DNA of 64,000 nt from an uncultured Acidobacteriaceae bacterium (GCA_963699875.1 CAVOVN010000011.1:6744-70743), one strand, 5' to 3'. Positions 12,051 through 61,075 are shown, counted from the first letter of the stretch. Program-made: numbers and translations. The notes: generated by a model not told the origin, from the sequence alone.

Positions 12051-12131
12051 TTCACTTTCTCCTTTTATGAACTGCTGCCAGTGGGTGGTTGGCGCTCACC
12101 GTGCTGGCGCCCTCACGCTTGCAGCGAAACT

Positions 12132-12269
12132 AGCTATCAGCTGTCAGCTCCCAGCCATCAGCTAAGACTTTGCACCTCAACTGCTCTTATACCGACAAAC
12201 TCTATTGCGGTCTCGGAACACTGACTCGCCAATCTTCAACTGACAGCTGATGGCTGACAGCTGATATCT
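12132..12269. repeat. periodic palindromic intergenic element (CAGCTGA-unit arms) inside the atpB-atpE spacer
   Basis: Left arm AGCTATCAGCTGTCAGCTCCCAGCCATCAGCT. The right arm is its imperfect reverse complement, CAACTGACAGCTGATGGCTGACAGCTGATATCT. Confidence 0.7.
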
Positions 12270-12270
12270 C

Positions 12271-24522: not shown

Positions 24523-24533
24523 CTCGGAAAAAT

Positions 24534-24729
24534 AGCTGTGAGCTCTTAGTCGTCAGCCATCAGCTTTGAGGACGGGTATCAGGTGTCAGGCTTCAGGTGT
24601 CAGCTCTCAGAAAGAGCGGTCAGGTAATCAGTAATGCCGGGCCAGGATGCAGCAGATTTTTCACTGAGACCTGATACCAGATACCTGATACCCGTTTGAC
24701 TGATAGCTGATGGCTGAAAGCTGACGGCT
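24534..24729. repeat. nested periodic palindromic intergenic element
   Basis: Outer arms GTCAGCCATCAGCT / AGCTGATGGCTGAAAGCTGAC. Inner arms GGTATCAGGTGTCAGGCTTCAGGTGTCAG / CTGAGACCTGATACCAGATACCTGATACC. Confidence 0.75.
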
Positions 24730-24734
24730 TCTTC

Positions 24735-25838
24735 TCACTCGTACGCCAGCGCGTCGATCGGGTCTTTTTGCGCGGCCTTCAGCGCGGGATAGAGCGCTCC
24801 CAGCAGCGAACCGATGATCGCAATGATGGTCGCGCGCAGCAGCCACGCGCTGGTAATCATGAGCGGCAAGGTCTGGAAATGCGCCTTTAATCCGCTCCTT
24901 GCTGCGTAGCTGATCGCGATGCCCAGTATCACTCCGCCGACGGCGATCAGCAGAGTCTCCCGCAGGATGGCGCCGACAATGTAGAGCTTGCCCGCACCCA
25001 GCGATTTCAGTATCCCGATTTCGCGAGTCCGCTCCATCACAGCGGCGTACATCGCTTGAAAAATGACGATGAAGCCGATGATCATGGCGATCCCGATCAC
25101 CACGCGAATTACTGTGTTCAGCCCGGGAACGCCGCTGGAAGTCATCAGGCTGAGGTATTCCTTCACCGAGTGCACCCCATACTGTGCCATGCCGGGAATG
25201 TCCTTGATTTCCTTCACCACTTCGTCGGCGTTGTTGGGATTGTCGAGCTTGACGTAAAAGATCGAGGCCTTACCCTGGGCCCCGATGATGTCTTGCAACG
25301 TCTGGAGAGGAACAAATTGTCGCGCACCACGGCCGTGCTCCACGATGCCGGTGACGGTGAACTCGTGATTCAATACCTCGACCTTGTCGCCGACTTTGCG
25401 GTGCTTCGACCCCGCTTCCAAATCGTCGATGATCATCGAGTACGGCCCTTGGAATGGCCCTCCGGAGAGGTACGGGAGGGGGCCGCCCACGGCCTCAAAC
25501 GATTGCAGGTCGATTCCGTCGATAACCTGAACATTGCCGGCCGTGGAAAGCGTCGCTACGACTGGCGCCACCGCAGTCACGTGCGGAAGCGGCCGTATCT
25601 TGTCTGCCACCTTTTGCGAAACAGGAGCGCCACTGATGCCCATGAACAGCGAGGCGCCCGGCGGCTGGACCAGGATGTCGGCGCCGACGCCCGCCTGGCG
25701 GCTGCTGCTGTCGTTGAGCATGCCCAGCATGATGCCGACAATCAGCAGAATCAGCGTGACCTCGACTGCAACCGCGAAGATGCTGATGATGGCGCGAATG
25801 GGCCGATGCACCAGGTTGGCTAAAATCATTCTGTTCAT
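24735..25838 (-). CDS. ABC transporter permease (MacB/FtsX-like)
   Basis: N-terminal TM helix, a large periplasmic MacB-like domain and a C-terminal FtsX 3-helix bundle. No ATPase partner in the window. Confidence 0.8.
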   Translation of the reverse strand: MNRMILANLVHRPIRAIISIFAVAVEVTLILLIVGIMLGMLNDSSSRQAGVGADILVQPPGASLFMGISGAPVSQKVADKIRPLPHVTAVAPVVATLSTAGNVQVIDGIDLQSFEAVGGPLPYLSGGPFQGPYSMIIDDLEAGSKHRKVGDKVEVLNHEFTVTGIVEHGRGARQFVPLQTLQDIIGAQGKASIFYVKLDNPNNADEVVKEIKDIPGMAQYGVHSVKEYLSLMTSSGVPGLNTVIRVVIGIAMIIGFIVIFQAMYAAVMERTREIGILKSLGAGKLYIVGAILRETLLIAVGGVILGIAISYAARSGLKAHFQTLPLMITSAWLLRATIIAIIGSLLGALYPALKAAQKDPIDALAYE

Positions 25839-28528: not shown

Positions 28529-28649
28529 AGGGTGTCAGGCCTCAGGTTTCAGGTGTCAGATCACGGAGAGAGGCGAACCATCAGCAGCCACCAGACACAC
28601 CAGCCGTCCGATCGTTTTCTCTGACACCTGACACCCGAGACCTGATACT
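28529..28649. repeat. periodic palindromic intergenic element (CAGGTGT-unit arms)
   Basis: Left arm AGGGTGTCAGGCCTCAGGTTTCAGGTGTCAGA and right arm TCTGACACCTGACACCCGAGACCTGATACT. Lies in the divergent zwf/mutS2 spacer. Confidence 0.75.
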
Positions 28650-32439: not shown

Positions 32440-32680
32440 AGCTTAGCTGTTAGCTATCAGCCGTCAGCCAAAGTCGCTCGGGTTTGTCATCACGAGCGGA
32501 GCGAGGGATCTGCTCTCGGCGGCCGTGCGAACAAAGCTCTCATTTGGGCGATGCGAGTAAAGAACAGATCCCTCGCTCCGCTCGTGATGACAAGGCTTAA
32601 GACCCTTGATGACAGCAAAAAGGCGGACGCAAATCCGGCTTTGTTCTTAGCTGAGAGCTGACGGCTGAAAGCTGATAGCT
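32440..32680. repeat. composite palindromic element: periodic outer arms enclosing an inverted pair of the GTCATC... repeat
   Basis: Outer arms at 32440-32469 and 32647-32680. Inner copies GTCATCACGAGCGGAGCGAGGGATCTGCTC at 32486-32515 and its reverse complement at 32562-32591. Confidence 0.8.
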
Positions 32681-32685
32681 TCCTC

Positions 32686-33804
32686 TCAAATCCTCATCGG
32701 CATCACGACGTAGCGGTACTTGAAACCGTCGTCGGCGCCGTCGTCGGGGCGCATCTGGCCGGCGGACTGAGCGTCCTTGAACTCCAGCCGTACCTCGCCT
32801 GCGCTTGAGGCCTTCAGGAAGTCGATCAGGTACTCGGAGTTGAAGCCGATGGTCATGGGATCGGCGGTGTAGGCGATCTCAATCGAATCTTCCGACTCGC
32901 CGGAGTCGGTGGACGACGAGGAAATCTTGATCTCGTTCTTGTCGAGCTTCATGCGAATTGCTCGCGAGCGCTCGTCGGCAAACTGCGCCACACGCTGCAG
33001 GGCCGTGCTCAGATCAGCACCATGCACCACGATGGATTTGGTGTTTTCCTTCGGCAATACGGCTTCGTAATTGGGGAACTGTCCGGTCAACTGGCGCGAG
33101 GTCAGCAGCCGCTCTCCGATGCGGAAGAACAGCGTCGACTCGTCTTTGGCGAAGTCGATGAAGTCCACTTCGCTGTTCTGCAGCAGCGAATACAGCTCGC
33201 TCATCGCCTTCTTGGGGATCAGCGTCTTGTTCTCGCCAGTCACGTCGAACTGCTCGCCCGTCTTTTCGATGTGCGCCAGGCGATGGCCGTCCGTCGCCAC
33301 CACGGTGATCGACTCCGGCTTTAGCACCATCAGGCCGCCGTTCAGGGTGTAGCGCGACTCCTCGTTCGAAATCGCGAAGATGGTCCGTCCGATCATGCTG
33401 CGCAATGTCTGCGCCGGGACCTTCACCACGCCCGAGGCGGGGAACGTCGGCAACCCGGGGAAGTTGGCGCGCGCCATGCCGACCATCTTGGTATTGGAGC
33501 GGCCAGAGCGAATGTTGACCCAGTGGTTCTCCAGCAGCTTGATCGAGATGTCGCCATCGGGCAGCAGTTTGACGTAGTCGTACAGCTTGCGCGCGGGAAT
33601 GGTGCAAGCGCCTTCCTTCTTCACCTTGGCTGCACATGAGGTACGCAGGCTGAGGTCGAGGTCGGTGGCGGTGATGGTCAGCCGGTTGTCAGCCGCTTCG
33701 AACAAAAAGTTCGAAAGGATAGGGATCGTAGTCTTGCGCTCAACCACCCCTTGGGTGGCCGTCAGTTCTTTCAGCAATTCAAACTTGCTTACGCTGATCT
33801 CCAT
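32686..33804 (-). CDS. dnaN: DNA polymerase III beta sliding clamp
   Basis: Three-domain clamp, MEISVSKFELLKEL...PMRI C-terminus. Position downstream of dnaA. The longest ORF starts at 33852. Confidence 0.95.
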   Translation of the reverse strand: MEISVSKFELLKELTATQGVVERKTTIPILSNFLFEAADNRLTITATDLDLSLRTSCAAKVKKEGACTIPARKLYDYVKLLPDGDISIKLLENHWVNIRSGRSNTKMVGMARANFPGLPTFPASGVVKVPAQTLRSMIGRTIFAISNEESRYTLNGGLMVLKPESITVVATDGHRLAHIEKTGEQFDVTGENKTLIPKKAMSELYSLLQNSEVDFIDFAKDESTLFFRIGERLLTSRQLTGQFPNYEAVLPKENTKSIVVHGADLSTALQRVAQFADERSRAIRMKLDKNEIKISSSSTDSGESEDSIEIAYTADPMTIGFNSEYLIDFLKASSAGEVRLEFKDAQSAGQMRPDDGADDGFKYRYVVMPMRI

Positions 33805-36939: not shown

Positions 36940-37205
36940 AGCGGAGCTTGCAAGCGTTATTGTCGGCCTACAAGCGCTGGGTGTCTCCGGCGCTGCCGAC
37001 CGCCTGCCGTTTTGTTCCTACCTGCTCCGAGTACGCGATGGAGGCGGTGGAGCGGCATGGTGCGTTGCGTGGCAGCATGCTTGCCGGTTGGCGACTGTTG
37101 CGCTGCCATCCATTTTGTCGCGGTGGGCACGACCCGGTGCCGATGAGGTTTTGGTGGAGTAAGCCGAGTCCAATTATTGGCTGTCATCCTGAGCGAGGAG
37201 CGTAG
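36936..37205 (+). CDS. yidD: membrane protein insertion efficiency factor YidD
   Basis: [27 protein letters not shown]...RCHPF motif. The GTG start overlaps the rnpA stop. The last 8 codons (GCHPERGA) lie inside a dispersed repeat copy. Confidence 0.9.
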
Positions 37206-37307
37206 CGACGAGTCGAAGGACCGCTATCGCCAGCAGAAATTTTCGGGTATATAGGAGTCCTTCGACCACGCTCTTCGCCTGCTGCGAATCGCTCCGCTCA
37301 GGATGAC
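37183..37307. repeat. inverted pair of the GTCATCCTGAGCG... dispersed repeat
   Basis: Copy at 37183-37221, GTCATCCTGAGCGAGGAGCGTAGCGACGAGTCGAAGGACC. A reverse-orientation copy at 37254-37307 ends ...GCTCCGCTCAGGATGAC. Confidence 0.8.
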
Positions 37308-48330: not shown

Positions 48331-48708
48331 TTATATCCACCTCGCAAGGGCAGCTCCGGCCGCGACGGCCACAAGGCAAAGAACGTTGCTGCCGATCACG
48401 TTCAAAGCCGCCTGCGACCACTGGCCTTGCTCCATCAGCGCAAACGATTCGAAGGCATAACTGGAGAAAGTCGTGTACGAACCGCAAAACCCAACCGCCA
48501 CCAGCAGCCGCCAATGATCGGCGACAAACAAGCGCTCGGTCGCAACGATCAGGAAGAAGCCCAGCAACAAGCTTCCAGTGACATTAATAAGGAGCGTTCC
48601 ATAGGGAAAGGCGCTGAAAGCCAGCTTTGCAACGTAGTTGCTCAGCAGATACCGGGCGCAGGCGCCGAGCACGGCGCCTATAGAGATGTAGAGCAGTCTT
48701 TCGGCCAA
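48331..48708 (-). CDS. crcB: fluoride ion channel CrcB/FluC
   Basis: Four TM helices with GTLLINVTGS and GFCGSYTTFS motifs. TTG start with AGGAG 7 nt upstream. Confidence 0.9.
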   Translation of the reverse strand: MAERLLYISIGAVLGACARYLLSNYVAKLAFSAFPYGTLLINVTGSLLLGFFLIVATERLFVADHWRLLVAVGFCGSYTTFSSYAFESFALMEQGQWSQAALNVIGSNVLCLVAVAAGAALARWI

Positions 48709-48714
48709 GGCAGT

Positions 48715-48779
48715 CTCCTACACAGAGTTGGTAGGAGTTATCAGCCCTTGCGCGGGCGGTTAAGGCGAACTCCATCGCC
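48715..48779 (-). promoter_or_regulatory. fluoride riboswitch (crcB RNA motif) with SD-sequestering platform
   Basis: The minus strand reads GGCGAUGGAGUUCGCCUUAACCGCCCGCGCAAGGGCUGAUAACUCCUAC, then CAACUCUGU, then GUAGGAG (containing the SD). TATAAT lies at 48793-48788. Confidence 0.85.
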
Positions 48780-48888
48780 TGACAACATTATATAAAGTTC
48801 GTTCCCCAGAAGCAGTGCCTTCCGTTGCCAACCCGAAAACGCCCCGACCATTTCTATGACATCCGGATTTAAACGCTGGTTTTTCAGC

Positions 48889-49000
48889 AGCTTACGCTAT
48901 CACCTCGAACTTACCTCCATATCACCTCGAGAGTATTGATCGCCCGGGCGAAGCGGCGCATTGTGCCCTCACGAGAGCGGAACTAAGCAACGCGTCGCCT
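48889..49000 (+). repeat. conserved leader box, copy 1 (putative promoter plus 5-prime leader)
   Basis: Aligns with 53297-53409. The last 47 nt differ at a single position. Contains two TATCACCTC units 21 nt apart. Confidence 0.75.
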
Positions 49001-49044
49001 TGGTCGCTCTCGAATCCAGGGACCTGGCGAACCAGGAGGCCACC

Positions 49045-49407
49045 ATGAAAACGCGAGACACGCAGGGGTCGTTCATCATTCTTATCTGGGCGCTCATCGC
49101 GAAGGTAGAACAGCTTACCAACGTTCCGGGCGTCTCCACTTATCCCCGCGCCGAACTGGTGGCCGATCTTCTTACTGCGCCCCCTGGTTTGCAGAAGCAT
49201 GCAGAGGCAGCAGGCCGAAGAAGCCCGCCTCAGCCAAAGAGTTTTCCGCTACAGCGGTTCCCACCCATCCACTCCCTCCTGTGCTTCCTCCTCTTTATCG
49301 AGGCTGCTGGGGTAACGCACGCCCCAGCACCCAAGCGGCGAGCGAACGTGCCGCAGATGGAATCGGCGATGGCCAGCTCAACCATCGCCAAGAGACCAAC
49401 GAATTAA
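49045..49407 (+). CDS. small ORF of the duplicated leader module, copy 1 (coding status uncertain)
   Basis: AGGAGG 6 nt upstream of the ATG. The N-terminal roughly 45 codons (MKTRDTQGSFIILIWALIAKV...) are conserved with copy 2. The stop overlaps the next ATG (TAATG). The C-terminal two thirds look non-protein-like. Confidence 0.3.
   Translation: MKTRDTQGSFIILIWALIAKVEQLTNVPGVSTYPRAELVADLLTAPPGLQKHAEAAGRRSPPQPKSFPLQRFPPIHSLLCFLLFIEAAGVTHAPAPKRRANVPQMESAMASSTIAKRPTN
49365..49389 (+). promoter_or_regulatory. conserved 5-prime-UTR hairpin, copy 1
   Basis: GGCGATGG-CCAGCTCAA-CCATCGCC, identical to 55341-55365. Ends 17 nt before the ATG at 49407. Confidence 0.5.
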
Positions 49408-50213
49408 TGAGGTTCATCATGCATAGTTCTAGTTCCTACTCTCTGGGTGTAACCCGTGAACAAAAATCAGCCGCCTCCAGATTTGCGCTGATGGTTTCTC
49501 TGTTCGCACTTCTTTTTATCGGGGTGCTCGCGAACGCACAATGTGTCCCCAACTGTCTCTTCTACGGCGGCGACTTCGAGCTTGCCAACAACAACGCTAA
49601 CGCCCTGCCAAACGAAAATGACGCCATCGTAGGCGCCGTTCCGTATGGCGCTGCCACCTTCCAGAACTTTGTTATCCCGGCCGGGCATACCTGGAATATC
49701 ACCAGTCTGTTCACCAACAACATCACCTCCCTTACGAACCCCCAGAGTGCCTATTTCGAGATTCGCACCGGCGTCTCAGAAGGCAATGGTGGAACGGTGA
49801 TCGCTTCCGGCTATGGCAATGCCGGGGCCGGCACTTTCACCTGGACGCCGACTGGCCGCAATGGTTTTGGCTTAGACGAGTACATGGCCCACGTGACCGG
49901 ACTCAACATCAACCTGGGCGCCGGCATGTACTGGGAGTCGGTGGTTCCGCAGGCACCCAATGATGCAGGCCGTTCTTTCAACACCAATACATTCACCAGG
50001 CCGGGTGGTTTTGGAACGCAGATCAGCGATCAGCAGTACTTCGACTCCCCATTTTTCGGTAGCAGCTTTACCAATGCTGACAATCTGGGCTCTTTCCCAA
50101 CTTTCTCCAGCGGTATTGATGGAGTTGACGCACCTGAGCCTTCGACTTTGCTCATGCTCGGCTCCGGGGTGGTCAGTGTAGCCGGTCTGTTGCGGAGGAA
50201 GTTGGTCGGATAG
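49407..50213 (+). CDS. PEP-CTERM sorting domain protein
   Basis: C-terminus APEPSTLLMLGSGVVSVAGLLRRKLVG. Signal peptide after MRFIMHSSSS.... Confidence 0.85.
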   Translation: MRFIMHSSSSYSLGVTREQKSAASRFALMVSLFALLFIGVLANAQCVPNCLFYGGDFELANNNANALPNENDAIVGAVPYGAATFQNFVIPAGHTWNITSLFTNNITSLTNPQSAYFEIRTGVSEGNGGTVIASGYGNAGAGTFTWTPTGRNGFGLDEYMAHVTGLNINLGAGMYWESVVPQAPNDAGRSFNTNTFTRPGGFGTQISDQQYFDSPFFGSSFTNADNLGSFPTFSSGIDGVDAPEPSTLLMLGSGVVSVAGLLRRKLVG

Positions 50214-50242
50214 CTACGCAGACTCTTCTCTGTGCAGGTGAC

Positions 50243-50267
50243 GAGCAGCTTCGCGGAGTAGCTGCTC
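50243..50267 (+). terminator. hairpin after PEP-CTERM gene
   Basis: GAGCAGCT-TCGCGGAGT-AGCTGCTC followed by CTTATATA. Confidence 0.4.
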
Positions 50268-50315
50268 CTTATATAAGCTCAACGACGCCGCAACATAACT
50301 GAGAAAGGAAATCAT

Positions 50316-50954
50316 ATGAAAACCAGCTTCGCAAAATTATCCGCTTTATCTATCTTGTTCCTGGCCTTTTCCGTAGTTTCATCCTTTGCCGCAAACATTA
50401 CTATCTATGGCACCGGCGAAACCAACAGCGGAACCGGGCAGGCCGATCCAAACTATCAACTAATTAGCGCGCCGCCCGGAGTCGCCCTCGGCCCAGCATA
50501 CACGGCTTCTTATGTTGCGTGGCACACTCCACCCCCGGGCTTGTACTGGGACAACCCTGTCAACCCATTTAATTACGCTCCGATTGGCGACTACGACTAT
50601 CGCACTACCTTTGACTTAAGCGGCTTCAATGCGGCCAGCGCCGTGCTGGCAGGACAAACGGGGGTGGATGACACCGGCACGATTTGGCTCAACGGTGTGA
50701 TGGTAGCAAGTATGGGAAGTCTCTCTTCCTTTGCTCCATTCACCATCACCGATGGCCTGAATGGGGCGCACTTCTTGTCCGGTCTTAACACGTTGGACTT
50801 CAAGGTCAATAACGACCCGCATTACGTCAATACGCCGACCGGTCTCATGGTAGACATCAGCGGCACGGCTGATGCCGTACCCGAGCCTGCCAGCCTGACG
50901 CTTCTGGGATCCGGAATTGTTGGATTGGCGGAGCTATTGCGGCGGCGGGCCTGA
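50316..50954 (+). CDS. PEP-CTERM sorting domain protein
   Basis: C-terminus VPEPASLTLLGSGIVGLAELLRRRA. Signal peptide present. GAAAGGA upstream. Confidence 0.85.
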   Translation: MKTSFAKLSALSILFLAFSVVSSFAANITIYGTGETNSGTGQADPNYQLISAPPGVALGPAYTASYVAWHTPPPGLYWDNPVNPFNYAPIGDYDYRTTFDLSGFNAASAVLAGQTGVDDTGTIWLNGVMVASMGSLSSFAPFTITDGLNGAHFLSGLNTLDFKVNNDPHYVNTPTGLMVDISGTADAVPEPASLTLLGSGIVGLAELLRRRA

Positions 50955-51025
50955 CAGCGAACATACTGTGGAGTCAATCTTCGCGTCATAACCATTTACG
51001 AAACACCTAATTATGGGGAAATCAT

Positions 51026-52390
51026 ATGAAAGCAATCTCTGTAAAACCGTTAGCTTCACCAATTGTGTTACTGGCGCTCGCCAGCACGCTCATCTTTTCT
51101 ATATTCGGACTACAGCAAACTGCGGTAGCCCAGCCTGATCCCACTTCGCAGTTCCGCAACAATGCCGAACACACCGGCGAAGTCGTCGAGTCGTTTCTGC
51201 ACCTTTCCAACATCTCCGATCTGGCTATCCAGTGGAAGGGAATAACAACCAGTTCGATTGTTGCATCGGCGACCGTTGTTATCCAGCCGATCGATCATGG
51301 TCACCACCATGTAGCCTATGTAACTTCCTACGATGGATTTCTCTATGCCTTTAACGCTGATAATTGCTACTTCGGGCACGAAAGCGGTGGAGGACAGGAA
51401 TGCCCTGTCCTGTGGCAATTTGCTATCGGCAACAATGCGTTCAGTTCGCCCGCTGTAGCGACCGAGCTCATCGGTGGTACGCCGACTTCGGTTGCATACG
51501 TCGCCGGCGGTGGCGGCGACCTTTACGCGATCAATGCGGTTACCGGAACGCAGATCTGGACAACTCACATCGGTAATCCAGGCCCGTACACCTCACCAGT
51601 TGTTGCCAATGGAGTGGTTTACATCCTTTCCACAGGTCTGGGCGAGCTGCTTGCTTTCGATGCGGTGGCTGGTGGCCCTTCTCTGTGGGCGGCAGTCACG
51701 AAAGGGTGGGCCTCTCCGACAATCGCTAAGGGAATTGTCTATGTGGGCGATGATTCTGGCACTATTCGCGCGTTCAGTGCCAACGGATGCGCGTCCCCCC
51801 CGTGTCAGCCGCTCGGAAGCATCAGCGGCTTCGGCGCATTCAACTCGACGGCCGCGGTCAGCAATGGACGAGTCTTCGTGGGGTCGGATGACTACAATCT
51901 TTACGCCTTTGAGGCTTCCGACGCATCTTGCAGTAGCATCTGCGGTCCACTATGGTCCGCCAACCTGGGTAGCCCCGTGCTTTCTTCACCTGCCGTCGCC
52001 AATGGTGTTGTCTATGTAATCGGTGGCAGCTTCACCAGTAACGGCAAGCTCTATGCCTTCGACGCAAACTGTTCGGGACCGGCATGCGGTACACCGCTTT
52101 GGACCGGGGACATCCACGGTTATTACTCAGCCTCTTCACCGGTTGTAGCGAACGGTGTTGTGTATGTCGATTCCGATGACGGTTACACCTATGCGTTCGA
52201 CGTGACCGGCTGTGGCGGCTCAACCACGTGTAGTCCCCTTGTGCGCGTGAACACGCACAACGGTGCGAGCGTGGAGTCGTCACCAGCCGTAGTCGATGGG
52301 GTTGTCTATGTCGGATCCACCGATGGAACCCTGTACATCCTCGGAACCTGCGGTTATGTGTGCCGCTATGACAACCAGAGTCTCTACTGA
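51026..52390 (+). CDS. secreted PQQ-like beta-propeller repeat protein
   Basis: Repeated units of the type SSPAVANGVVYV.S.DG.LYAFDA. Signal peptide present. Confidence 0.8.
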   Translation: MKAISVKPLASPIVLLALASTLIFSIFGLQQTAVAQPDPTSQFRNNAEHTGEVVESFLHLSNISDLAIQWKGITTSSIVASATVVIQPIDHGHHHVAYVTSYDGFLYAFNADNCYFGHESGGGQECPVLWQFAIGNNAFSSPAVATELIGGTPTSVAYVAGGGGDLYAINAVTGTQIWTTHIGNPGPYTSPVVANGVVYILSTGLGELLAFDAVAGGPSLWAAVTKGWASPTIAKGIVYVGDDSGTIRAFSANGCASPPCQPLGSISGFGAFNSTAAVSNGRVFVGSDDYNLYAFEASDASCSSICGPLWSANLGSPVLSSPAVANGVVYVIGGSFTSNGKLYAFDANCSGPACGTPLWTGDIHGYYSASSPVVANGVVYVDSDDGYTYAFDVTGCGGSTTCSPLVRVNTHNGASVESSPAVVDGVVYVGSTDGTLYILGTCGYVCRYDNQSLY

Positions 52391-52630
52391 GCTGGTCTGC
52401 CTGTAAACAACTCACGGGATGCCGCTATTCACGGGTATCCCGCCCTGAGTTAGAGGTAATCACCATGGCTTGCCGACCATGATTGGCTAATGGAAAGAAC
52501 AGTCGTTTACCTCCAAACGATCTACGCTGATGTACCCAGGTGCTCGCGGCAGTGTGGAGAATGGACTAGTTGATCAGACGTGCATAAGGGTACGCCTCCG
52601 CCGCATACAATGGTCAGCAAGGAAGAAGTC

Positions 52631-53047
52631 ATGCCCCTTCAGCCGGAAGTGCAGTCGTTGCTTTCACGTCCTAACTTCGCCCACCTCTCCACCTTGATGC
52701 CCGACGGCTCGCCGAACACCACGCCGGTTTGGATCGGGCTCGAGGGCGACAACATTGTTATCTGTACCAGCGAGGGCAGCCTGAAGGCACGCAACCTGCG
52801 CCACGATCCGCGCCTGTCCCTCTCCGTCGTGGATTTCGACAATCCTTACGAAGAGGTACAGATTCGGGGACGCGTGGTTGAGGTTCGTGACGACTCGAAG
52901 CTCGACACCATGGACAAGATCTCGCAGAAATATATTGGTGCTCCATTCCCAATGCGTGACTTCAAGCAGATCGCCATGATCATCGAAGTCGAGAAGGCGC
53001 GCTACACTAAGCTCCCCTTCCAGCACACCCCGCCGGGACGTACTTAG
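52631..53047 (+). CDS. pyridoxamine 5-prime-phosphate oxidase family (PPOX class, possibly F420-dependent) protein
   Basis: FAHLSTLMPDGSPNTTPVW...VICTSEGSLKARNLRHDPRLSLSV split-barrel pattern. AAGGAAG upstream of the ATG at 52631. Confidence 0.8.
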   Translation: MPLQPEVQSLLSRPNFAHLSTLMPDGSPNTTPVWIGLEGDNIVICTSEGSLKARNLRHDPRLSLSVVDFDNPYEEVQIRGRVVEVRDDSKLDTMDKISQKYIGAPFPMRDFKQIAMIIEVEKARYTKLPFQHTPPGRT

Positions 53048-53296
53048 CCATTGCCAACTAGCTGTTAGCAACTGCAAAGAAGCAGCCAGGTGATGAGACA
53101 TGGGGCCGTGCGTCCGATCGTGCGTCCCATCCATTCCCTCTAGAGATTCCGGAGTCTCCCATGTGGAATCGGTGGTTCAGACTCCTCAGCTTTGATCCGC
53201 GCCATCCGCGTGATCCGCGCTTCTTCTCCCTCTTCTTCCCCGATCCCAGGCGCCCGTTTGATGATGATGTTTGCCCTCACGCCCATTCTCTTCAAT

Positions 53297-53409
53297 AGCT
53301 TGCGCTATCACCTCCAACTTATCTCCATATCACCTCGCAAGTATTGAACGCCGAACCAGACGCGGCGCATTGTGCCCTCACGAGAGCGGAACTGAGCAAC
53401 GCGTCGCCT
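53297..53409 (+). repeat. conserved leader box, copy 2
   Basis: See copy 1. It is followed by a 140-nt non-conserved spacer and then the small ORF. Confidence 0.75.
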
Positions 53410-53549
53410 CAGCCGCCCTCGCAGGACCCAAACGCCGGAGGCGGGATAACCGTTGATTCCTTCAGCACCCAGCCTCCGGTCGCCAAGGTTCTCCAACGAG
53501 GCGGCACATGCGGTCGAAATCCACGGATTGCCAACGAAAGGAGACCATC

Positions 53550-53825
53550 ATGAAAACGCGAGACACCCAGGGGGCATTCATCTCTCTTATCTGGACGCTC
53601 ATAGCGAAGGTTAAGCAAATCACCACCGCTTCCAGCGTCCCCATTCATCCCCACGCGGACATGGCGGCCGATCTTCTTTTGCAGCCCGTGGTTTCCCGCA
53701 GTACGCAGCGACGGCTGGCTGAAGATGCCAGCCTCAACCACCAGGTCTATCGCTTCAGCAGTGTCAATAACGCGACTTCCCTCTGCCGGCTGGATCGGGG
53801 CGCGCTGAACTTGCCTGTGCGGTAA
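53550..53825 (+). CDS. small ORF of the duplicated leader module, copy 2 (coding status uncertain)
   Basis: AAAGGAG 7 nt upstream of the ATG. MKTRDTQGAFISLIWTLIAKVKQIT... is conserved with copy 1 for about 45 codons. Confidence 0.3.
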   Translation: MKTRDTQGAFISLIWTLIAKVKQITTASSVPIHPHADMAADLLLQPVVSRSTQRRLAEDASLNHQVYRFSSVNNATSLCRLDRGALNLPVR

Positions 53826-53856
53826 GCGATACCAACTCGGAAAAATTGGAGCTTAT

Positions 53857-55287
53857 ATGAAAACGCACTTCTTCAGGACTCAGAGACTAAGCTGCGGGAC
53901 TTTTTTCAGCATTCACCGAGAGGTCTTCACCCTAGTCTTCCTGCTGGTTGTTCTCGTCCTGGTCCTTGGTGGACCAGCGAGTGCCTCCCCGCGACACAAT
54001 TTGAAGCGCGATTCCGCAGGCCAAGCGGGCAGGTCGCAATTCTTCTACTCGCTGGGCCAGGGCTATTTCAACTATCCGTCATCGGATGACAACTGGCTCG
54101 GTGGCACCGGCAACTGGACGAATGCCGCGCTATGGAGCGCCGGCGTGCCGGGCAGCAGCAGCGATGTCTTCATCGGCTCCGGCGGCGACGACCGCTCCAT
54201 CTACACTCCGAGCAACGGAACCATCAACTCGCTGACTGTCGGTGCAGCGACCGGAACTGCCGAGTTCCAGGAGATGACCGGCGCTGGACTGGTTGTTAGC
54301 GGCACACTTAACAACCAGGTGAACGGCACCGTTATCAACGCCGGAACGCTGTCGGTTGCCAGCCTGGCGAATCTTGGCACTCTGAACAACCAGGGCACTC
54401 TCACCCTCACCAACCAGCCAAACGGCATCACGCAGATCGCGCCGGATTCGCAGTTCGACAATATCGGCACTGTCCTGGCGGGCAGCAACAATGCCTTCGC
54501 TCAACTGCAGGACATCGAAGGGCACTTCCTGCAGCACAACGGGCAGACGACCAACATCACTCCCGGCAGCGGGACGCTTACCATCGGCGCGCCGGGCTTC
54601 TTTGAGATGTCCCGCTGGAACACCATGACCTCGGTACAAGTCAATGGAGACCTGAATAACCAGGGCCGGATCAGGACCGATGGAGGAGCGCTCACTGTAA
54701 CCGGCGCCTTCAACAATGCCGGTTCGTTGCTATGGTATGGCGACGGTTTCGCCAATGTTAATCGCCTTACAGCCACGCATGGTCTGGTGAATACCGGGAG
54801 TATTGGGCTTGCCTTTGGCAGCGTCCTCAGCACTCCCTACTTCAGCAATAGCAACTACCTGAGCATTGATCACGCCTCTGCTTTTCTGGTCGGCACGGGT
54901 ACTGCGGGAGCTGGCTATCAGCAGTTTGCCGATGGTCGGCTGACCGAAAACCTCGGTGATGCCTTCCACTTCGGGGTCATGTTCGCCGACAGCTTCGCAC
55001 TGGACGGCACCCTCGACATCGAGCTGCAAAACGGCTTCACTCCGCAGGCAGGCTCGTCCTTCATCATCGGATATGCCAAGGCAGGCGGCTTGAGCGGCCA
55101 GTTCGCGAACATCAGCAATCAGTTCTTCAACAATGGGACGGAAGAGTGGGTGGTGAACTATGACAACCCCCATGGCTATCTGGAGCTGGATGCAATCGAC
55201 ACTAACGCGCCGGAGCCGGGCACTCTCCTGCTCTTAGGTACCTCAATGGCTGGCGTGGGCGGTCTACTGCGGCGTCGGCTCGGCTGA
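53857..55287 (+). CDS. PEP-CTERM sorting domain protein with autotransporter-like GTLNN repeat region
   Basis: C-terminus APEPGTLLLLGTSMAGVGGLLRRRLG. Internal repeats (GTLNNQ...). Signal/TM segment present. Confidence 0.85.
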   Translation: MKTHFFRTQRLSCGTFFSIHREVFTLVFLLVVLVLVLGGPASASPRHNLKRDSAGQAGRSQFFYSLGQGYFNYPSSDDNWLGGTGNWTNAALWSAGVPGSSSDVFIGSGGDDRSIYTPSNGTINSLTVGAATGTAEFQEMTGAGLVVSGTLNNQVNGTVINAGTLSVASLANLGTLNNQGTLTLTNQPNGITQIAPDSQFDNIGTVLAGSNNAFAQLQDIEGHFLQHNGQTTNITPGSGTLTIGAPGFFEMSRWNTMTSVQVNGDLNNQGRIRTDGGALTVTGAFNNAGSLLWYGDGFANVNRLTATHGLVNTGSIGLAFGSVLSTPYFSNSNYLSIDHASAFLVGTGTAGAGYQQFADGRLTENLGDAFHFGVMFADSFALDGTLDIELQNGFTPQAGSSFIIGYAKAGGLSGQFANISNQFFNNGTEEWVVNYDNPHGYLELDAIDTNAPEPGTLLLLGTSMAGVGGLLRRRLG

Positions 55288-55340
55288 GCTGTCTCTCACG
55301 CGATTCTGTGCGGTGAGCGAAGTTGCTGCAACTTTCAATA

Positions 55341-55365
55341 GGCGATGGCCAGCTCAACCATCGCC
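55341..55365 (+). promoter_or_regulatory. conserved 5-prime-UTR hairpin, copy 2
   Basis: Identical 25-mer GGCGATGGCCAGCTCAACCATCGCC. Ends 28 nt before the ATG at 55394. Confidence 0.5.
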
Positions 55366-55393
55366 GATAAACCAGCATTAGAGGAGGTCATTA

Positions 55394-57559
55394 ATGAAAT
55401 CGCAGATTCCTAATCGTCACACCTGCTCTCTTTTCGTCCGTTGTCACGGGTTTGACCACACATTACGTGTCTCGCTTGCTGTTGTCTTCGCTTTGCTTTC
55501 CATGGTGGGTAGTATGTTTGGTCAGGAGAGTCCCCGCGTATTAGCGGGCAGCACCCCAGGTGTAGTTGCTCAAGGCAAGGATATTGGCCCGGAAGACCCT
55601 GAAAAACAAATTGAGATTACCGTCGTCCTGCAGCGCCGCAACGAGCCTGGGTTTCAGCAGGTTCTGCAGCAGCTCTACACTCCAGGCTCGCCTATCTTTC
55701 ACCAATGGCCGACAATGGCACAATACGTCGCAAACTTTGCGCCCAGCCCTGCCGATGTGAAAATCGTCAGTGACTTCCTTTATTCACGTGGCTTGAGCGT
55801 TTCCCGCAGCGACGACTTCAACGCTTATATTGTGGCTGAGGGCACGGTCGCTGACGTCCAGAATGCCTTTCACGTTCAGATCAACCAGTTCGACCTTGAT
55901 GGCAAAATATATCGCGCGAATGTCGGCGAGCTCGTGCTGGACGGTACCATTTCCGCACTCGTCTCAACGGTGCGGGGACTCGACAACATTGGGTTCGAAT
56001 CGCACGTTCGACAACCCGTCAGCCCGTCAACCGGCCTGCCGGCGGCGCCCATTCCGATCGATGAGTTGACTCCCGGCGGGTTTATCAACTCGTGTTTTGG
56101 AGTCTCCGAAGAGGACACTTTCCACACGCACAGCTACTGGCCTTTCTTTAATTACACGGGTCAGAAATACGATGCGAACGCCTGGAATCTCTCCGGCGGA
56201 ACACGATGTGCATATACGCCGCATCAGGTGCAGGACGGGTACGGTCTTACTGGCGTATACAGTGCCGGCAACGACGCACACTATCAGGGAATCGGCATCG
56301 TGGTGGCCTACGGCTCGCCGACGATCATTGCGGATGAAAGCTATTTTGCCAGCTACTACGGACTTACTCTTCCTAGGATGGATATTCACTTTTCAGGCAA
56401 TCCTCCTCTGAATGTAGATTGGGCGCTCGAAACGACGCTGGATGTGGAGTATGCCAGTGCCATGGCGCCGGGCGCGCTTATCGACCTGTGGATCGCCTCT
56501 GATCCGTCGTCCCTCCCCACAACGCTGCTCGACGCTGTTCAGCACCACTGCGACGATGCGCCATGCGATAACCAGATCTCTAGCAGTTGGGGTAGTCCCG
56601 AAAGCTTGCATAGCGCGAGCGATCTGAATTTCGTGGACAGTGTGGCGCAGCAAGCCAGCCTCCTTGGCATCTCGCTGCAATTCAGCTCGGGCGACGATGG
56701 AGATTTCCAGAAGGCAACCGGCAAGGTCGACGTCAGCACACCGGCAAGCGATCCATGGGTAACCGCCGTCGGCGGAACCTCGCTGGTAATGAATAGCGAC
56801 GACAGCATCTTATTCCAGACGGGTTGGGGCACGAACCTCACTGAAATCGCCAACCAGTCATTCGCAGACGATCCGCCGGTGCATTTTGGCTTTCGGGCAG
56901 GTGCAGGCGGTGGAACGAGCCGCGTCTTCATAGGAAAGCTATGGCAGCAAGGATGTTTCGGGGTAACCGTATCTTGCGGGAAGCCCGGGGTACATCGCAC
57001 CGTACCGGATATTGCTCTACTAGCCGATCCCTATACCGGCGTGCAAGTCATACACACGCAAGGCTACGACAGCCACAATAGTAAATTCGTGATGGATGTT
57101 ACCGGCGGCACAAGTCTTGCTACGCCCATGTTTAGCGGCGTGTGGGCCCTGGCCAACGAATACTATGCCGATAAGATCGTGAATCAGTATGGAGCTTCGC
57201 TCGGCGTGGCAAGTGTCTACGGCTATTGGGACCAGAAATACTACCCAGCGGCCGTAAAAGACATCAGCGAGAGCAGCTTTTCAAATAGAGAAGCCTATAA
57301 CGTCACGGGCTGCGAGCATCGGTTGTTCAAGAAAGGCTGTCATCCAAACTATTCGCCGAACTACTTGATCGATGCGACCGCTCCCTTCATTAGCGCGATT
57401 ATGGCAGAAGAGCCTAATGCACCAAGAAATTGGTATGTACTAGGCTTTGGTACCGATTCATCGTTGCATACGGGCGCTGGGTGGGATCCTGTGACGGGAG
57501 TAGGTGTTCCCAACGGAATGCAATACCTAACAGGGATTGCGAAGTATTATCATCACTAA
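55394..57559 (+). CDS. S53 family (sedolisin/kumamolisin-like) serine peptidase with pro-kumamolisin activation domain
   Basis: N-terminal propeptide pattern (ITVVLQRRN...FHQWPTMAQYVANFAPSPADV...LSVS). Catalytic GGTSLATPMFSGVWAL. AGAGGAGG upstream. Confidence 0.9.
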   Translation: MKSQIPNRHTCSLFVRCHGFDHTLRVSLAVVFALLSMVGSMFGQESPRVLAGSTPGVVAQGKDIGPEDPEKQIEITVVLQRRNEPGFQQVLQQLYTPGSPIFHQWPTMAQYVANFAPSPADVKIVSDFLYSRGLSVSRSDDFNAYIVAEGTVADVQNAFHVQINQFDLDGKIYRANVGELVLDGTISALVSTVRGLDNIGFESHVRQPVSPSTGLPAAPIPIDELTPGGFINSCFGVSEEDTFHTHSYWPFFNYTGQKYDANAWNLSGGTRCAYTPHQVQDGYGLTGVYSAGNDAHYQGIGIVVAYGSPTIIADESYFASYYGLTLPRMDIHFSGNPPLNVDWALETTLDVEYASAMAPGALIDLWIASDPSSLPTTLLDAVQHHCDDAPCDNQISSSWGSPESLHSASDLNFVDSVAQQASLLGISLQFSSGDDGDFQKATGKVDVSTPASDPWVTAVGGTSLVMNSDDSILFQTGWGTNLTEIANQSFADDPPVHFGFRAGAGGGTSRVFIGKLWQQGCFGVTVSCGKPGVHRTVPDIALLADPYTGVQVIHTQGYDSHNSKFVMDVTGGTSLATPMFSGVWALANEYYADKIVNQYGASLGVASVYGYWDQKYYPAAVKDISESSFSNREAYNVTGCEHRLFKKGCHPNYSPNYLIDATAPFISAIMAEEPNAPRNWYVLGFGTDSSLHTGAGWDPVTGVGVPNGMQYLTGIAKYYHH

Positions 57560-57967
57560 ATACCAACCGGGTGCACGAACAGCACTCCGGTTCTCCCCGC
57601 CCAGCCGCAGTCTGGTTGGGCGGGGGGCCATGGGCCTCTCACCTCGAGCGTCGCGAGAACCTCAATACCTGGGCACGAGGGCTGTCAAACCTCCATCACC
57701 ATTGATATTGATCCAGGCGGGGCTTTGATTGTTCGACGAGCATCGGTACAACCGGGGCCGCCGAGGCTTCCAGCCAATCACCCATTCGGGCCTTCCGCCC
57801 CGGTACGGCCCTACTTTTCCTCCGAATCCACAGCCTTCCACATCAATGCACCGAAAAGGGGCGTTGAAGCCGCCCGCAGACGGGTCTATTGTCCGAGAGT
57901 CGGGACGAGTCACACCCCATTAACTTCGCGGACGATAACCGCCGTGATGCCCCTAACGGGTGTAAAA

Positions 57968-58019
57968 TAACAATATGTGGTAGTAGCCTCTTGACATCCA
58001 CAATATGCGGGAGTAATGT
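57968..58019 (+). promoter_or_regulatory. putative nrdJ promoter overlapped by two NrdR-box-like sites
   Basis: TTGACA (57991-57996), 17-nt spacer, TAATGT (58014-58019). ACAATATGTGG is centred near 57975 and CACAATATGCGG near 58005, 30 bp apart. Each matches about 10/16 of acaCwAtATaTwGtgt. Confidence 0.45.
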
Positions 58020-60278
58020 TCGCTTCCACAGGGTATTCCGGAGCCTTCGTTTGGTTCTTCTCCTCCTGAGCGAAAGCCGCCCGGAACCAGAGGTGAATCA
58101 GGGACTTAGGTGGCTGGGCTCGATTCCTCCCGAGCACGGCCAGGGCCAAGGGCCAGATCGGTTGAATTAGCAGGTAATCGTGCCGGCCTCATGCAGGCCG
58201 GCGGGCCGAAAGCCGAGTCGAATCCTAGAAATAAGGAGAGAAATAAGGTCGGCGTTCGGTGTTCCTTTCCAAGTCAGCTAACCAACGTTGCCGGGAGTGG
58301 GGTGACTCCCGGCGACTTTCCCTTACAGTCCGGCAACTCCGCAGGAGCGAGATCGTGCCCTGCGGAACTGGATGAGCACTCCGCACGTGTTCCTCCAGCA
58401 GTCGCGGTGACACCGGACCTAACGCACCGAGTGGGGGCTGCCTTCCCGGCCAGAAACCGGCCGACGGAGCAGCCCCCACCGCTTTGCGCGACGGGTAGTG
58501 CGGGCCTTTACGTGGCGTGGCACTGAGCAGGGTAGTGCGATAGACCTTTACGAGTCGCCGTTACGGAGACGATAGAGCTGACCTTTAGGTCCGCGTCGGG
58601 CAAGTGCGAAACAGTTCGAAGTCCCGTAGGGACGACAGATTAAAGCCCCGTCCTTCAGGACTGGGTAATCGACGACAGACTGTACCGCAATCATATCGAT
58701 CAGGAGTTTCCCATGGCCGACGTAACCACAACGACTAAAACCACGAGCGCTTCCACCACGGCAACTACGAAGAAAGCGCCCGGCCTCACCTTCAAACGTT
58801 TCTTCACCACCGCCGGCGTCTCGCCCTATGACGAGCTCGAGTGGGAGCTGCGCCTGGCCCAGATCACCGACGCCAAGGGCGGCGTGATCTTCGAGCAGAA
58901 GGACGTCGAGACTCCCAAGGACTGGTCGATGACGGCGACCAACATTGTCGCCTCGAAATATCTGCACGGCACGCTCGATACTCCCGAGCGCGAAACCGGC
59001 GTGCGCCAGCTCGTGTCGCGCGTAGCCGAAACCATTCGCGACTGGGGTGTCAACGGCGGATACTTCCGCACTCCCGACGACGCCGCCATCTTCCACGACG
59101 AGCTCGCCCACCTGCTGTTGCAGCAGAAGGCAGCGTTCAATTCGCCGGTATGGTTCAACGTGGGCTGCGATCGCATCGAGCCCAACTCCGACGCGCAGAA
59201 CTGGCACTGGAACGCCGCGGAGCAGAAGGTCGAATTCAGCGCCGTCGGTTACACCAAGCCGCAGTGCTCGGCCTGCTTCATCAACTCGGTCAACGATTCG
59301 CTCGACTCCATCCTGACGCTGGCCAAGACCGAAGGCATGCTCTTCAAGTGGGGATCGGGTACCGGCACCAACCTGTCGCCGCTGCGCTCGTCCACCGAGT
59401 CGCTCTCCGGCGGAGGCACCGCCTCAGGTCCGCTGAGCTTCATGAAAGGTTTCGACGCCTTCGCCGGCGTCATCAAGTCCGGAGGCAAGACCCGCCGCGC
59501 CGCCAAGATGGTCATCCTCAACGTCGACCATCCCGACGTCGTCGACTTCATCGAGTGCAAGCAGAAGGAAGAAGCCAAGGCCTGGGCGCTGATCGAGCAC
59601 GGCTACGACGGCTCGGGTCCCGACTCGGAAGCCTACTCGTCCATCTTCTTCCAGAACGCCAACAACTCGGTGCGCGTGACCGACGACTTCATGTACGAAG
59701 TTGTCCGCGACGGCGAGTTCTAGACCAAGTCGGTGAAGGACGGCCGCCCGGTGCACACCTTCAAGGCGCGCGACCTGCTGCGCAAGATTTCCGACGCAAC
59801 CTGGCACTGCGGCGATCCCGGAATGCAGTACGACACCACGACCAATCGCTGGCACACTTCGAAGAACACGGCGCGCATCAACGCGTCGAATCCCTGCAGC
59901 GAGTACATGTTCCTCGACGACTCGGCCTGCAACCTGGCGTCGCTCAACCTGCTCAAGTTCGCGCCCAACGGAACCTTCGACGTCGAAGCTTATCGCCACG
60001 CCTGCGCCGTCGTCATCACCGCGCAGGAGATCCTGGTCGACAACAGCGGCTATCCGACCGAAGCCATCTCGCGCAACTCGCACGACTATCGTCCGCTGGG
60101 ACTCGGCTACGCCAACCTGGGCGCGCTGCTCATGGCCGCGGGCCTGCCCTACGACTCCGATGCCGGACGCGACTACGCTGCCTGCGTCACCGCCATCATG
60201 TGCGGCGAAGCGTACTTGCAGTCGTCGAAGATCGCCGAACTCTGCCAGCCGCTGGCGCCCGCAACAGACAACTACGGC

Positions 60279-60319
60279 TGTCATCCTGAGCGAGGCGCGG
60301 AGCGACGAGTCGAAGGACC
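60279..60319 (+). repeat. GTCATCCTGAGCG... repeat copy inserted in frame in nrdJ
   Basis: GTCATCCTGAGCGAGGCGCGGAGCGACGAGTCGAAGGACCC, translated as [15 protein letters not shown] within the NrdJ frame. Confidence 0.8.
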
Positions 60320-61075
60320 CCTGACTACCCGCGACACGTTCTCCGGCGCCGCCTGTCCCGGCTGGTACGTCAATCGAGAGCCCTTCCTCGACGTCATCCG
60401 CATGCACCGCGCTTCGGTCAACAACATCAACAAGCACGAACGTTCCCGCGTCGCTCCTCGAAGCCAGCAAGGCTACCTGGGACGAAGCCCTCAAGCACGG
60501 CGAGCGCTTCGGATATCGCAACGCGCAGGTCACGGTGCTCGCGCCCACCGGCACCATCGGCTTCATGATGGACTGCGACACCACCGGCATCGAGCCTGAC
60601 CTGGCGCTGGTGAAGTACAAGAAGCTGGTTGGCGGCGGCATGATCAAGATCGTGAACAACACCGTCCCGGCCGCGCTCTTCAAGCTGGGATACACCAACG
60701 ACCAGACCAACGCCATCGTCAGCTACATCGACGCCACCGGAACCATCGAAGGCGCGCCCGCCATCAAGGACGAGCACCTCGCCGTCTTCGACTGCTCCTT
60801 CAAGCCGTCGAAGGGCACGCGCACCATTCACTACACCGGACACCTGCGCATGATGGCCGCCACCCAGCCGTTCATCTCGGGAGCGATCTCGAAGACCATC
60901 AACATGCCCGAGAACGCGACGGTCGAAGAAATTTCCGAAGCCTACATCCAGGCCTGGAAGCTCGGCCTGAAGGCGGTCGCCATCTATCGCGACGGATCGA
61001 AGAAGGCGCAGCCGCTCAGCTCCATGGGCTCCGCCACCGCCAAGTCGCAAAAAGGCGACGCACAATATTCGTCTG

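Follow-up and report, generated by a model that had tools for sequence, protein, structure and literature searches.

The described systems closest to the locus considered here are the ToxR, CadC and VtrA activators, PhoB and OmpR and, for its association with the same class of genes, PrsK/PrsR. OmpR/PhoB-type winged helices bind direct repeats spaced 10–11 bp, and in the pho box of PhoB and in OmpR sites such periodic repeats lie next to the -35 hexamer or replace it. PrsK/PrsR represents sigma-54-dependent regulation linked to PEP-CTERM/exosortase loci. The PEP-CTERM substrates of exosortases are surface proteins that make up a large class, and little is understood of how they are controlled. 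Acidobacteria are among the most abundant soil bacteria, with almost nothing known of their gene regulation. The subject of this work is a conserved DNA element, here called the box, which occurs twice in a 64,000-nucleotide (nt) stretch from an uncultured Acidobacteriaceae bacterium (GCA_963699875.1 CAVOVN010000011.1:6744-70743; the whole stretch is referred to as the window, and positions are counted from its first letter), each time followed by a leader, a small open reading frame (ORF) and genes for secreted proteins. It is proposed, with a probability of roughly 0.6, that the box is an activator-dependent sigma-70-type promoter with its transcript start, to be read together with a CadC/ToxR-like regulator, a 5′-terminal hairpin (P1), the small protein encoded by the first cistron, a further RNA motif (H2) and the downstream cargo genes.

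The likeness to ToxR, CadC and VtrA lies in the tandem direct repeats upstream of a weak candidate promoter and in the regulator whose gene is linked to the box in related loci, which has an OmpR-type winged helix (CadC and ToxR being its best PDB matches), then a single hydrophobic segment and a large C-terminal sensor domain. In contrast to these systems, the sensor of the acidobacterial regulator is TPR-rich and comprises about 600 residues, the target units are of 11 bp with the core T-N-A-Y-C-T-C, many targets lie away from the regulator gene, and binding is here a prediction. With the pho box and OmpR sites, the box shares the phasing of the repeats, their place directly upstream of the promoter core and the weak hexamers, but it is linked to neither a receiver domain nor a partner histidine kinase, the TTGA of the -35 hexamer is kept and the unit is different. 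The association with PEP-CTERM genes is common to PrsK/PrsR; the module is nevertheless distinct from that sigma-54 system, as the box fits no -24/-12 motif (TGGCAC-N5-TTGC) on either strand when judged by eye, no pattern scan having been run, no sigma-54 activator (enhancer-binding) domain is present in the gene maps of related loci, and the cargo is not limited to PEP-CTERM proteins. P1 resembles 5′-terminal stem-loop stabilisers, such as the hairpin of the ompA 5′ untranslated region, in that every leader has it within 1–2 nt of the predicted 5′ end, but a stabiliser alone would not call for the sequence invariance seen in the 5′ arm of P1. H2 recalls Acido-1, Acido-Lenti-1 and riboswitches in being short, conserved, GC-rich, multi-hairpin and limited to Acidobacteria. 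Acido-1 and Acido-Lenti-1 are different motifs from the box and H2 and are both already in Rfam; they are listed as non-cis-regulatory (PMC2864571), whereas H2 stands in cis at a fixed distance ahead of start codons. The TPR sensor, the repeat unit, the phylum and the dispersed targets set the module apart from the ToxR/CadC/VtrA and PhoB/OmpR paradigms, and an orphan small-protein family and an undescribed RNA motif accompany it.

Distribution and conservation of the box

Searched with a covariance model of 19 related boxes, the window yields two copies, at 48880-49013 (E = 9e-30) and 53288-53422 (E = 6e-28), both on the + strand; the 64 kb contain no others, and none on the reverse strand or in inverted orientation. 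The copies align in two blocks, 48883-48944 with 53291-53352 (87% identity) and 48950-49012 with 53359-53421 (90%). This agrees with an earlier description made from the sequence alone (the original prediction), which had reported two near-identical copies with a one-base difference in their last 47 nt; in the pairwise alignment this base is the A/G of GGAACT(A/G)AGC. Of the 30-nt core GGCGCATTGTGCCCTCACGAGAGCGGAACT, the 64 kb contain exactly two occurrences, with 0 expected, and all four exact TATCACCTC sites of the window fall inside the two boxes.

Beyond the window, the box was found at about 20 further loci in Acidobacteriaceae metagenome-assembled genomes (MAGs) and soil metagenomes (loci and proteins are labelled below by L and P numbers). 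It heads the small ORF in all seven genome loci, which come from five uncultured Acidobacteriaceae MAG species. A metagenome scan, for which the leader core GCATTGTG-N5-8-CGAGAGCGG served as the query, yielded about 12 further distinct boxes with differing first genes; about 100 of the 120 matches of this pattern scan were chance matches inside unrelated genes. An independent check is provided by loci reached via the divergent small-ORF proteins P0016 and P0021, which lay outside all model building and carry, at the expected places, both the box (E = 1e-25, 1e-19 and 7e-17) and H2 (E = 5e-17 to 9e-9). The view that the box and the small ORF constitute a conserved regulatory cassette, and not a local duplication, is supported.

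The original prediction could match the module to nothing described, and this still holds for Rfam, Pfam and NCBIfam. Rfam gives no match at the box or H2, either at gathering thresholds over the whole window or at E<=10 over 48700-55500, its only matches in the window being a fluoride riboswitch and Acido-Lenti-1, both away from the box and H2. Full-text literature searches turned up no account of this regulator class in Acidobacteria, nor of the box or H2. Synteny with the window, both modules included, extends to the metagenome contigs L001 and L002, and over the modules L001 is essentially identical to the window. Relative to L001, the window has two single-base insertions, near 49171 and near 53362, the latter a G that makes the promoter spacer 18 nt long in copy 2 instead of 17 nt; these could be sequencing errors or genuine strain differences.

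Direct repeats and candidate promoter

From 5′ to 3′, the box consists of a T-rich block (TTTTTCA....CTTAG), three or four repeats in 11-bp phase, 5 nt, an invariant TTGA, a variable spacer, the invariant GCATTGTG, CCCTCA and the invariant CGAGAGCGG. The repeats start at 48898, 48909 and 48920 in copy 1 and at 53306, 53317 and 53328 in copy 2. Two units 21 nt apart had originally been described; the TATCACCTC units in fact start 22 nt apart, and a third, degenerate unit (ACTTACCTC or ACTTATCTC) lies between them. Across the 19 boxes, the 11-bp phasing is retained while the unit itself varies by lineage (TATCACCTC, TGACCTC or GATCACC).

TTGA and GCATTGTG are invariant in the 19 boxes, and the spacer between them is free in sequence and kept in length, with 17–18 nt from TTGAnn to CATTGT. 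TTGAnn-17/18-CATTGT is probably the promoter; it provides the TTGA of a -35 hexamer and a -10 hexamer with A at position 2 and T at position 6. The TTA(C/T)CT-17-TATTGA promoter proposed earlier is less likely: its -35 is the middle direct repeat, for which other lineages have TGACCT or ATCACC, and the conserved T at the end of a -10 hexamer is missing from TATTGA. Transcription would start about 7 nt past CATTGT, near 48971 and 53380. The weakness of the hexamers fits the expectation if an activator is needed.

Two further readings of the invariant block were judged by eye and rejected, one as a sigma-54 site (the GG/GC spacing is wrong) and one as an extracytoplasmic function sigma factor site (GGAAC and CGTC are only 9 nt apart, and GGAAC is not conserved). 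Antisense ORFs that span the box (e.g., 48922-49200 on the - strand) were also rejected, as the difference between a 17- and an 18-nt spacer puts them in different frames in the two copies.

The linked regulator

In L045, the gene for an 816-residue protein is divergent from the box, 47 nt away. Homologous proteins of 794–855 residues are encoded divergently, about 50–290 nt from the box, at nine independent loci (L045, L004, L065, L061, L117, L040/L084, L037, L130 and the contig carrying P0008), and the N-terminal domains of those in L065, L061, L117 and L040/L084 are 66–69% identical to that of L045. The protein has a Trans_reg_C domain at residues 46–122, followed by TPR repeats, and between the two domains a single 19-residue hydrophobic window (mean hydropathy 2.2–2.4) at about 180–230. 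The DNA-binding domain matches CadC (E = 2.7e-15) and ToxR (E = 2.7e-12) best among PDB entries. This arrangement suggests a cytoplasmic winged helix and an extracytoplasmic sensor, with the large TPR domain probably located in the periplasm. The 10–11 bp spacing known for the sites of OmpR/PhoB-type winged helices fits the 11-bp repeats of the box, and the regulator is predicted to activate the box through these repeats as its operator.

The small-protein gene

Whether a peptide or an RNA is conserved in the small ORF had been left open; on the present data, it is the peptide. A profile search against 1.84 billion representative proteins gave 26 clusters at 50% identity, 24 of them of 70–132 residues and the others a 47-residue fragment and a 377-residue repeat protein. 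The motifs of the family are MKT..TQGSFI.LI.TL, an insertion-tolerant linker, PRA..VA.LL, RVFRYSSS and a serine-rich tail, and the N-terminal and RVFRYSSS motifs are retained down to about 25–35% identity. The median pairwise ratio of nonsynonymous to synonymous substitution rates (dN/dS) is 0.5, the variable columns of codons 1–22 are distributed 9/6/16 over codon positions 1/2/3, and a strong Shine–Dalgarno (SD) sequence is conserved ahead of the start codon. Judged by these features, the small ORF is a genuine family of proteins of 70–130 residues; it has no match in Pfam, NCBIfam, PADLOC or the PDB sequences. The small ORFs of distant loci (MTTQSTLGPFMTLILTL...RVFRIGSS) appear to be remotely related to it (hhalign probability 89%, E = 2e-6). 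For a regulatory arrest peptide of the SecM/MifM type, whose C-terminal arrest motif would sit by a hairpin occluding the downstream SD, the upstream ORF and the downstream hairpins (those of H2) are present, but the SD is not part of H2, and RVFRYSSS lies 10–25 codons before a stop whose position varies.

In the window, copy 1 of the ORF starts at 49045, correcting the previously given 49046, and copy 2 at 53550. The 1-nt indel reported past codon 45 is real, an extra C near 49171 in copy 1, and constitutes a frameshift, since this base is absent from the otherwise identical L001 and L002; there the ORF encodes 89 residues, ends at 49315 and matches the family consensus to its end, and the homologues follow the frame of copy 2, not that of copy 1. 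The overlap of the ORF stop with a PEP-CTERM start (TAATG), which had been presented as a feature, belongs to the frameshifted reading of copy 1 and is a by-product of it.

Leader hairpins and the H2 motif

The leader pairing suggested previously (GGCGCATTG...CAACGCGTCGCC) is not the conserved helix, which is instead P1, formed by CGAGAGCGG (48972-48980) and TCGCTCTCG (49004-49012). In 19 sequences, 92.7% of the cells of its nine pairs are paired, against 42–56% with the 3′ partner slid, and P1 is present in every leader folded, at position 2 of each predicted transcript. Most of the variation exchanges G-C for G-U through the 3′ arm, and one change, from G-C to A-U, is compensatory; the interior of the hairpin is wholly different between lineages, yet it still pairs. 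Its most economical role is probably protection of the mRNA 5′ end, and the invariant 5′ arm suggests an additional constraint. Long leaders, including that of copy 2, contain in addition P2 (CCGGAGGCGG...CCGCCUCCGG), a GC-rich hairpin in which some changes are compensatory. Pairings that cover the SD occur in copy 1 and in long leaders and are not kept across lineages, and a pseudoknot of GUGCCCUC with a GGGGA stretch, judged by eye, was rejected as not conserved. The string GAGCG(G)AA is seen again within the 5′ arm of P1, and in many leaders P2 is followed by (A)GCGAA.

H2 is a two-hairpin RNA motif that is absent from Rfam, is separate from the small ORF and in copy 1 follows closely after it, and was missed in the original prediction; it was first flagged by a repeat search (49361-49398 versus 55337-55374). 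Its consensus of about 55 nt reads GCGGY[GAGCGAAnnn]RCCGC - linker - GGCGAUGG[CCAGCUCAA]CCAUCGCC. In nine copies picked by hand, pairing involves 95.7% of cells, compared with 25–71% when slid, and three pairs change on both sides. The H2 model (R1) finds exactly two copies in the window and 14 strong copies in related loci, where 94% of cells are paired versus 30–64% slid. In this alignment, which was fitted to the model, 3 of 13 pairs changed on both sides and 0–2 of 500 shuffles reach the score. The pairs in related loci include C-G, U-G and U-A alternatives, and the inner stem is largely different in L008. The G-U pairs speak for an RNA-level element and not a DNA palindrome, and H2 probably acts on RNA, in processing, stability or translation. 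From its end to the downstream start codon there are 25–30 nt. H2 is repeated ahead of successive genes in L009, L130 and L132; in the module of window copy 2, none precedes the first cargo gene and one precedes the peptidase gene. The loops hold an invariant complementary GAGC and GCUC (49341-49347 and 49376-49379; 55316-55322 and 55352-55355), and from this complementarity a loop-loop contact could form.

Cargo genes

The cassette had been described as dedicated to exosortase substrates. The regulatory cassette and the enrichment of PEP-CTERM genes are confirmed, but exclusivity is not. The recurrence ahead of PEP-CTERM genes outside the window was found in L003, L005, L009, L061, L094, L130 (two genes) and L132, in addition to three such genes in the window, and at least one PEP-CTERM gene is present in ten of roughly 22 box-headed operons, about half being without. 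Other cargo comprises LamG-domain, Kelch-like, GT2 glycosyltransferase, sedolisin, membrane and unknown-family secreted proteins, which shows that the module is not exosortase-specific. The set of PEP-CTERM and beta-propeller genes that follows copy 1 also follows the module in L094. For the first PEP-CTERM gene of the window, the previously proposed start at 49407 is less likely than the ATG at 49419, which has a GAGG SD 6 nt upstream, as in homologues (Table 1).

The first gene after the box is a MKTRD-type ORF, a TLGPFLTLIL-type small ORF or an KFARFLEEHPGF small protein, and in other loci a signal-peptide protein directly, a membrane protein or a 37-residue ORF; not every box is accompanied by the MKTRD-type ORF. 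Another small-protein family (M..Q..KFARFLEEHPGF.PELIG...) is the first cistron in L045 (5836-6069, -) and L065 (~824-1286, +). In L008 (~3880-5084, +), a small ORF and a 152-residue ORF are followed by a 400-residue protein with a CxxxCxxC motif (CNLRCQYC), which by this motif resembles a radical-SAM enzyme. Two adjacent secreted-protein genes of the window are 71% identical over the ribosome-binding site (RBS) and first codons (50307-50365 versus 51017-51075; GGAAATCATATGAAA...), and a near-identical translation-initiation region (ACCACGACCACAAGGAGGTCACCATGAAA) is common to many cargo genes in related loci.

Table 1. Features of the two modules in the window and the evidence on which each is based
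Feature	Position	Strand	Basis and remarks
Upstream conserved block TTTTTCAGCAGCTTACGC	48880..48897	+	19-box alignment; fourth repeat unit instead in some lineages
Three direct repeats, 11-bp phase (TATCACCTC, ACTTACCTC, TATCACCTC)	48898..48928	+	Proposed winged-helix activator sites
Proposed promoter: -35 TTGATC 48936-48941, 17-nt spacer, -10 CATTGT 48959-48964	48936..48964	+	19-box conservation
P1 stem-loop, predicted transcript 5′ end (CGAGAGCGG ... TCGCTCTCG)	48972..49012	+	Pairing test; folding
CCAGG / CCTGG / CCAGG alternative pairings over AGGAGG RBS	49016..49039	+	Lineage-specific, weakly supported
Small-protein gene copy 1	49045..49315	+	89 residues in relatives; frameshifted here, extra C near 49171
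H2 copy 1, GCGGC[GAGCGAACGU]GCCGC and GGCGAUGG[CCAGCUCAA]CCAUCGCC hairpins	49335..49389	+	78.3 bits, E = 2e-16
PEP-CTERM protein gene	49419..50213	+	PF07589, TIGR02595; alternative in-frame start 49407
Second PEP-CTERM protein gene	50316..50954	+	PF07589/TIGR02595 library searches
Secreted PQQ/BamB-like beta-propeller gene, probably same operon	51026..52390	+	Pfam
Box copy 2	53288..53422	+	Repeats 53306-53336; proposed -35 TTGAAC 53344-53349; proposed -10 CATTGT 53368-53373; P1 53381-53421
P2 hairpin of long leader (CGCCGGAGGCGGG ... CCAGCCUCCGGUCG)	53433..53483	+	Folding; in most long leaders
Small-protein gene copy 2	53550..53825	+	91 residues, intact
PEP-CTERM protein gene, 476 residues	53857..55287	+	Pfam, NCBIfam
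H2 copy 2	55310..55365	+	72.6 bits, E = 5e-15; 28 nt before next start codon
Sedolisin-type (pro-kumamolisin) secreted peptidase gene	55394..57559	+	PF09286

Proposed mechanism and alternative explanations

In the preferred interpretation, the three or four 11-bp-phased repeats just upstream of the weak promoter would be the operator of a CadC/ToxR-like one-component regulator, composed of an N-terminal OmpR-type winged helix, one membrane segment and a large TPR domain and encoded elsewhere in this genome. The RNA would begin about 7 nt past CATTGT and open with P1, which would stabilise the 5′ end of the mRNA, long leaders gaining P2 as a second hairpin. From the first cistron a conserved two-helix protein of 70–130 residues would be made, H2, placed 25–30 nt before the start codons of following genes, would work at the RNA level, and the cargo would yield secreted or cell-surface proteins, with PEP-CTERM proteins in about half of the operons. 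If this is correct, the module represents a testable regulon with a promoter, a candidate membrane-bound sensor-regulator, an orphan small-protein family and a non-Rfam RNA motif, and the covariance models of the box and H2 can be used for mapping it across genomes. A further elaboration, to which we give a slim chance, is an as yet undescribed acidobacterial envelope-signalling circuit with the module as its output, in which the small protein would be exported or processed and sensed by the TPR domain of the regulator, and H2 would represent a new class of protein- or ligand-responsive RNA element that acts as a gate on each secreted or PEP-CTERM protein gene; such an auto-inducing loop would be loosely analogous to peptide-sensing TPR regulators.

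Several observations weigh against the activator-dependent promoter and the roles proposed for the elements downstream of it. A consensus scan for sigma-70 promoters and terminators calls neither candidate promoter, and the block from the -10 to about +10 is conserved far beyond ordinary promoter needs. The window encodes no homologue of the regulator detectable by tblastn, so that its two boxes would have to be remote targets of a gene elsewhere in the genome. The support for P1 comes mostly from tolerance of G-C/G-U exchange and from one compensatory change because the 5′ arm never varies, and a DNA-level site could be the reason for this constancy instead. Three independent sequences of the small ORF have frameshifts (window copy 1, P0003 and L009), which may be assembly errors or decay, the dN/dS of this ORF is only moderately low, and an AlphaFold2 model from a seven-sequence alignment gives two helices at low confidence (predicted local distance difference test score, pLDDT, of 64).

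The same frameshifts and dN/dS of just about 0.5, together with a nucleotide alignment that runs on across the indel, are what would favour a small ORF that is untranslated and conserved at the RNA level. We regard this as very unlikely: the SD and ATG are conserved, the protein motifs persist to about 25–35% identity with a linker that accepts whole-codon insertions, third-codon-position variation dominates in codons 1–22, and some of the source assemblies may contain single-base indel errors. A different explanation places the sensor in the leader itself, where P1, P2 and an anti-SD stretch would form a riboswitch-like or thermosensing gate on the small ORF and the repeats would be secondary. 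It agrees with the structured and conserved leaders (z-scores -2 to -4.4), with the pairing of GGUUCUC to the SD GGAGACC that RNAalifold predicts in long leaders, and with the ability of CCUGG in copy 1 to pair with the upstream CCAGG or with the CCAGG inside the SD. Nevertheless, the SD pairing is lineage-specific and missing from L004 and L008, P1 has a freely variable loop, neither a junction nor an internal loop is conserved that would hint at a ligand pocket, and Rfam offers no match; as the repeats and the linked regulator would also be left unexplained, a sensing leader seems unlikely, with an outside chance of being right.

A cassette dedicated to exosortase (PEP-CTERM) substrates and transcribed from TTA(C/T)CT-17-TATTGA has a rather small chance. 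The ten PEP-CTERM operons among roughly 22 are far above the genomic share of such genes, but operons that lack a PEP-CTERM gene and encode instead LamG, Kelch-like, GT2, membrane or unknown secreted proteins speak against dedication, and the hexamers of this promoter meet the objections given above, a -35 that is a repeat unit and changes with lineage and a -10 without its final T. The two similar copies lying 4.4 kb apart in one window might also be taken for a recent segmental duplication or the end of an insertion sequence (IS) or miniature inverted-repeat transposable element (MITE), with no regulatory meaning. This is extremely unlikely, as the box is neither confined to these two loci nor an IS or MITE end: several species and metagenomes have the module, its flanks being unrelated and its downstream genes different, and its orientation to the SD and start codon is always the same. 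The 64 kb hold only two copies, both on the + strand and each followed by an SD and ATG, without an inverted partner, and divergence between the copies has affected their spacers and tails but not the functional blocks.

Other features of the window

Upstream of crcB (48331-48708, -), a fluoride riboswitch (48725-48788, -; 60.5 bits) is divergent from box copy 1 at a distance of about 90 nt, and a DUF190 gene lies past crcB in the syntenic L001. Downstream of the second module, about 1.1 kb without a convincing ORF (57800-58900) are 77–82% conserved with three MAG loci (L005 3554-4705, L006 5549-6203 and L008 5797-6146), where the counterparts are also located downstream of box operons. Within this region, a good TTGACA-17-TAATGT promoter is located near 57992 and the Acido-Lenti-1 match at 58620-58665 (-). 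As the module operon of L132 has a ribonucleotide reductase gene downstream, 57800-58900 may represent a noncoding RNA or a long structured leader. Short repeat families rich in CAGCTGA- or GGCTGA-like units occur in intergenic regions at 12127-12277, 24529-24737, 28530-28572 and 32651-32688, and a 47-nt repeat (GGCTGTCATCCTGAGCGAGG.GCG.AGCGACGAGTCGAAGGACC) is found at 37179-37225 and 60276-60322, 23 kb apart, with 94% identity.

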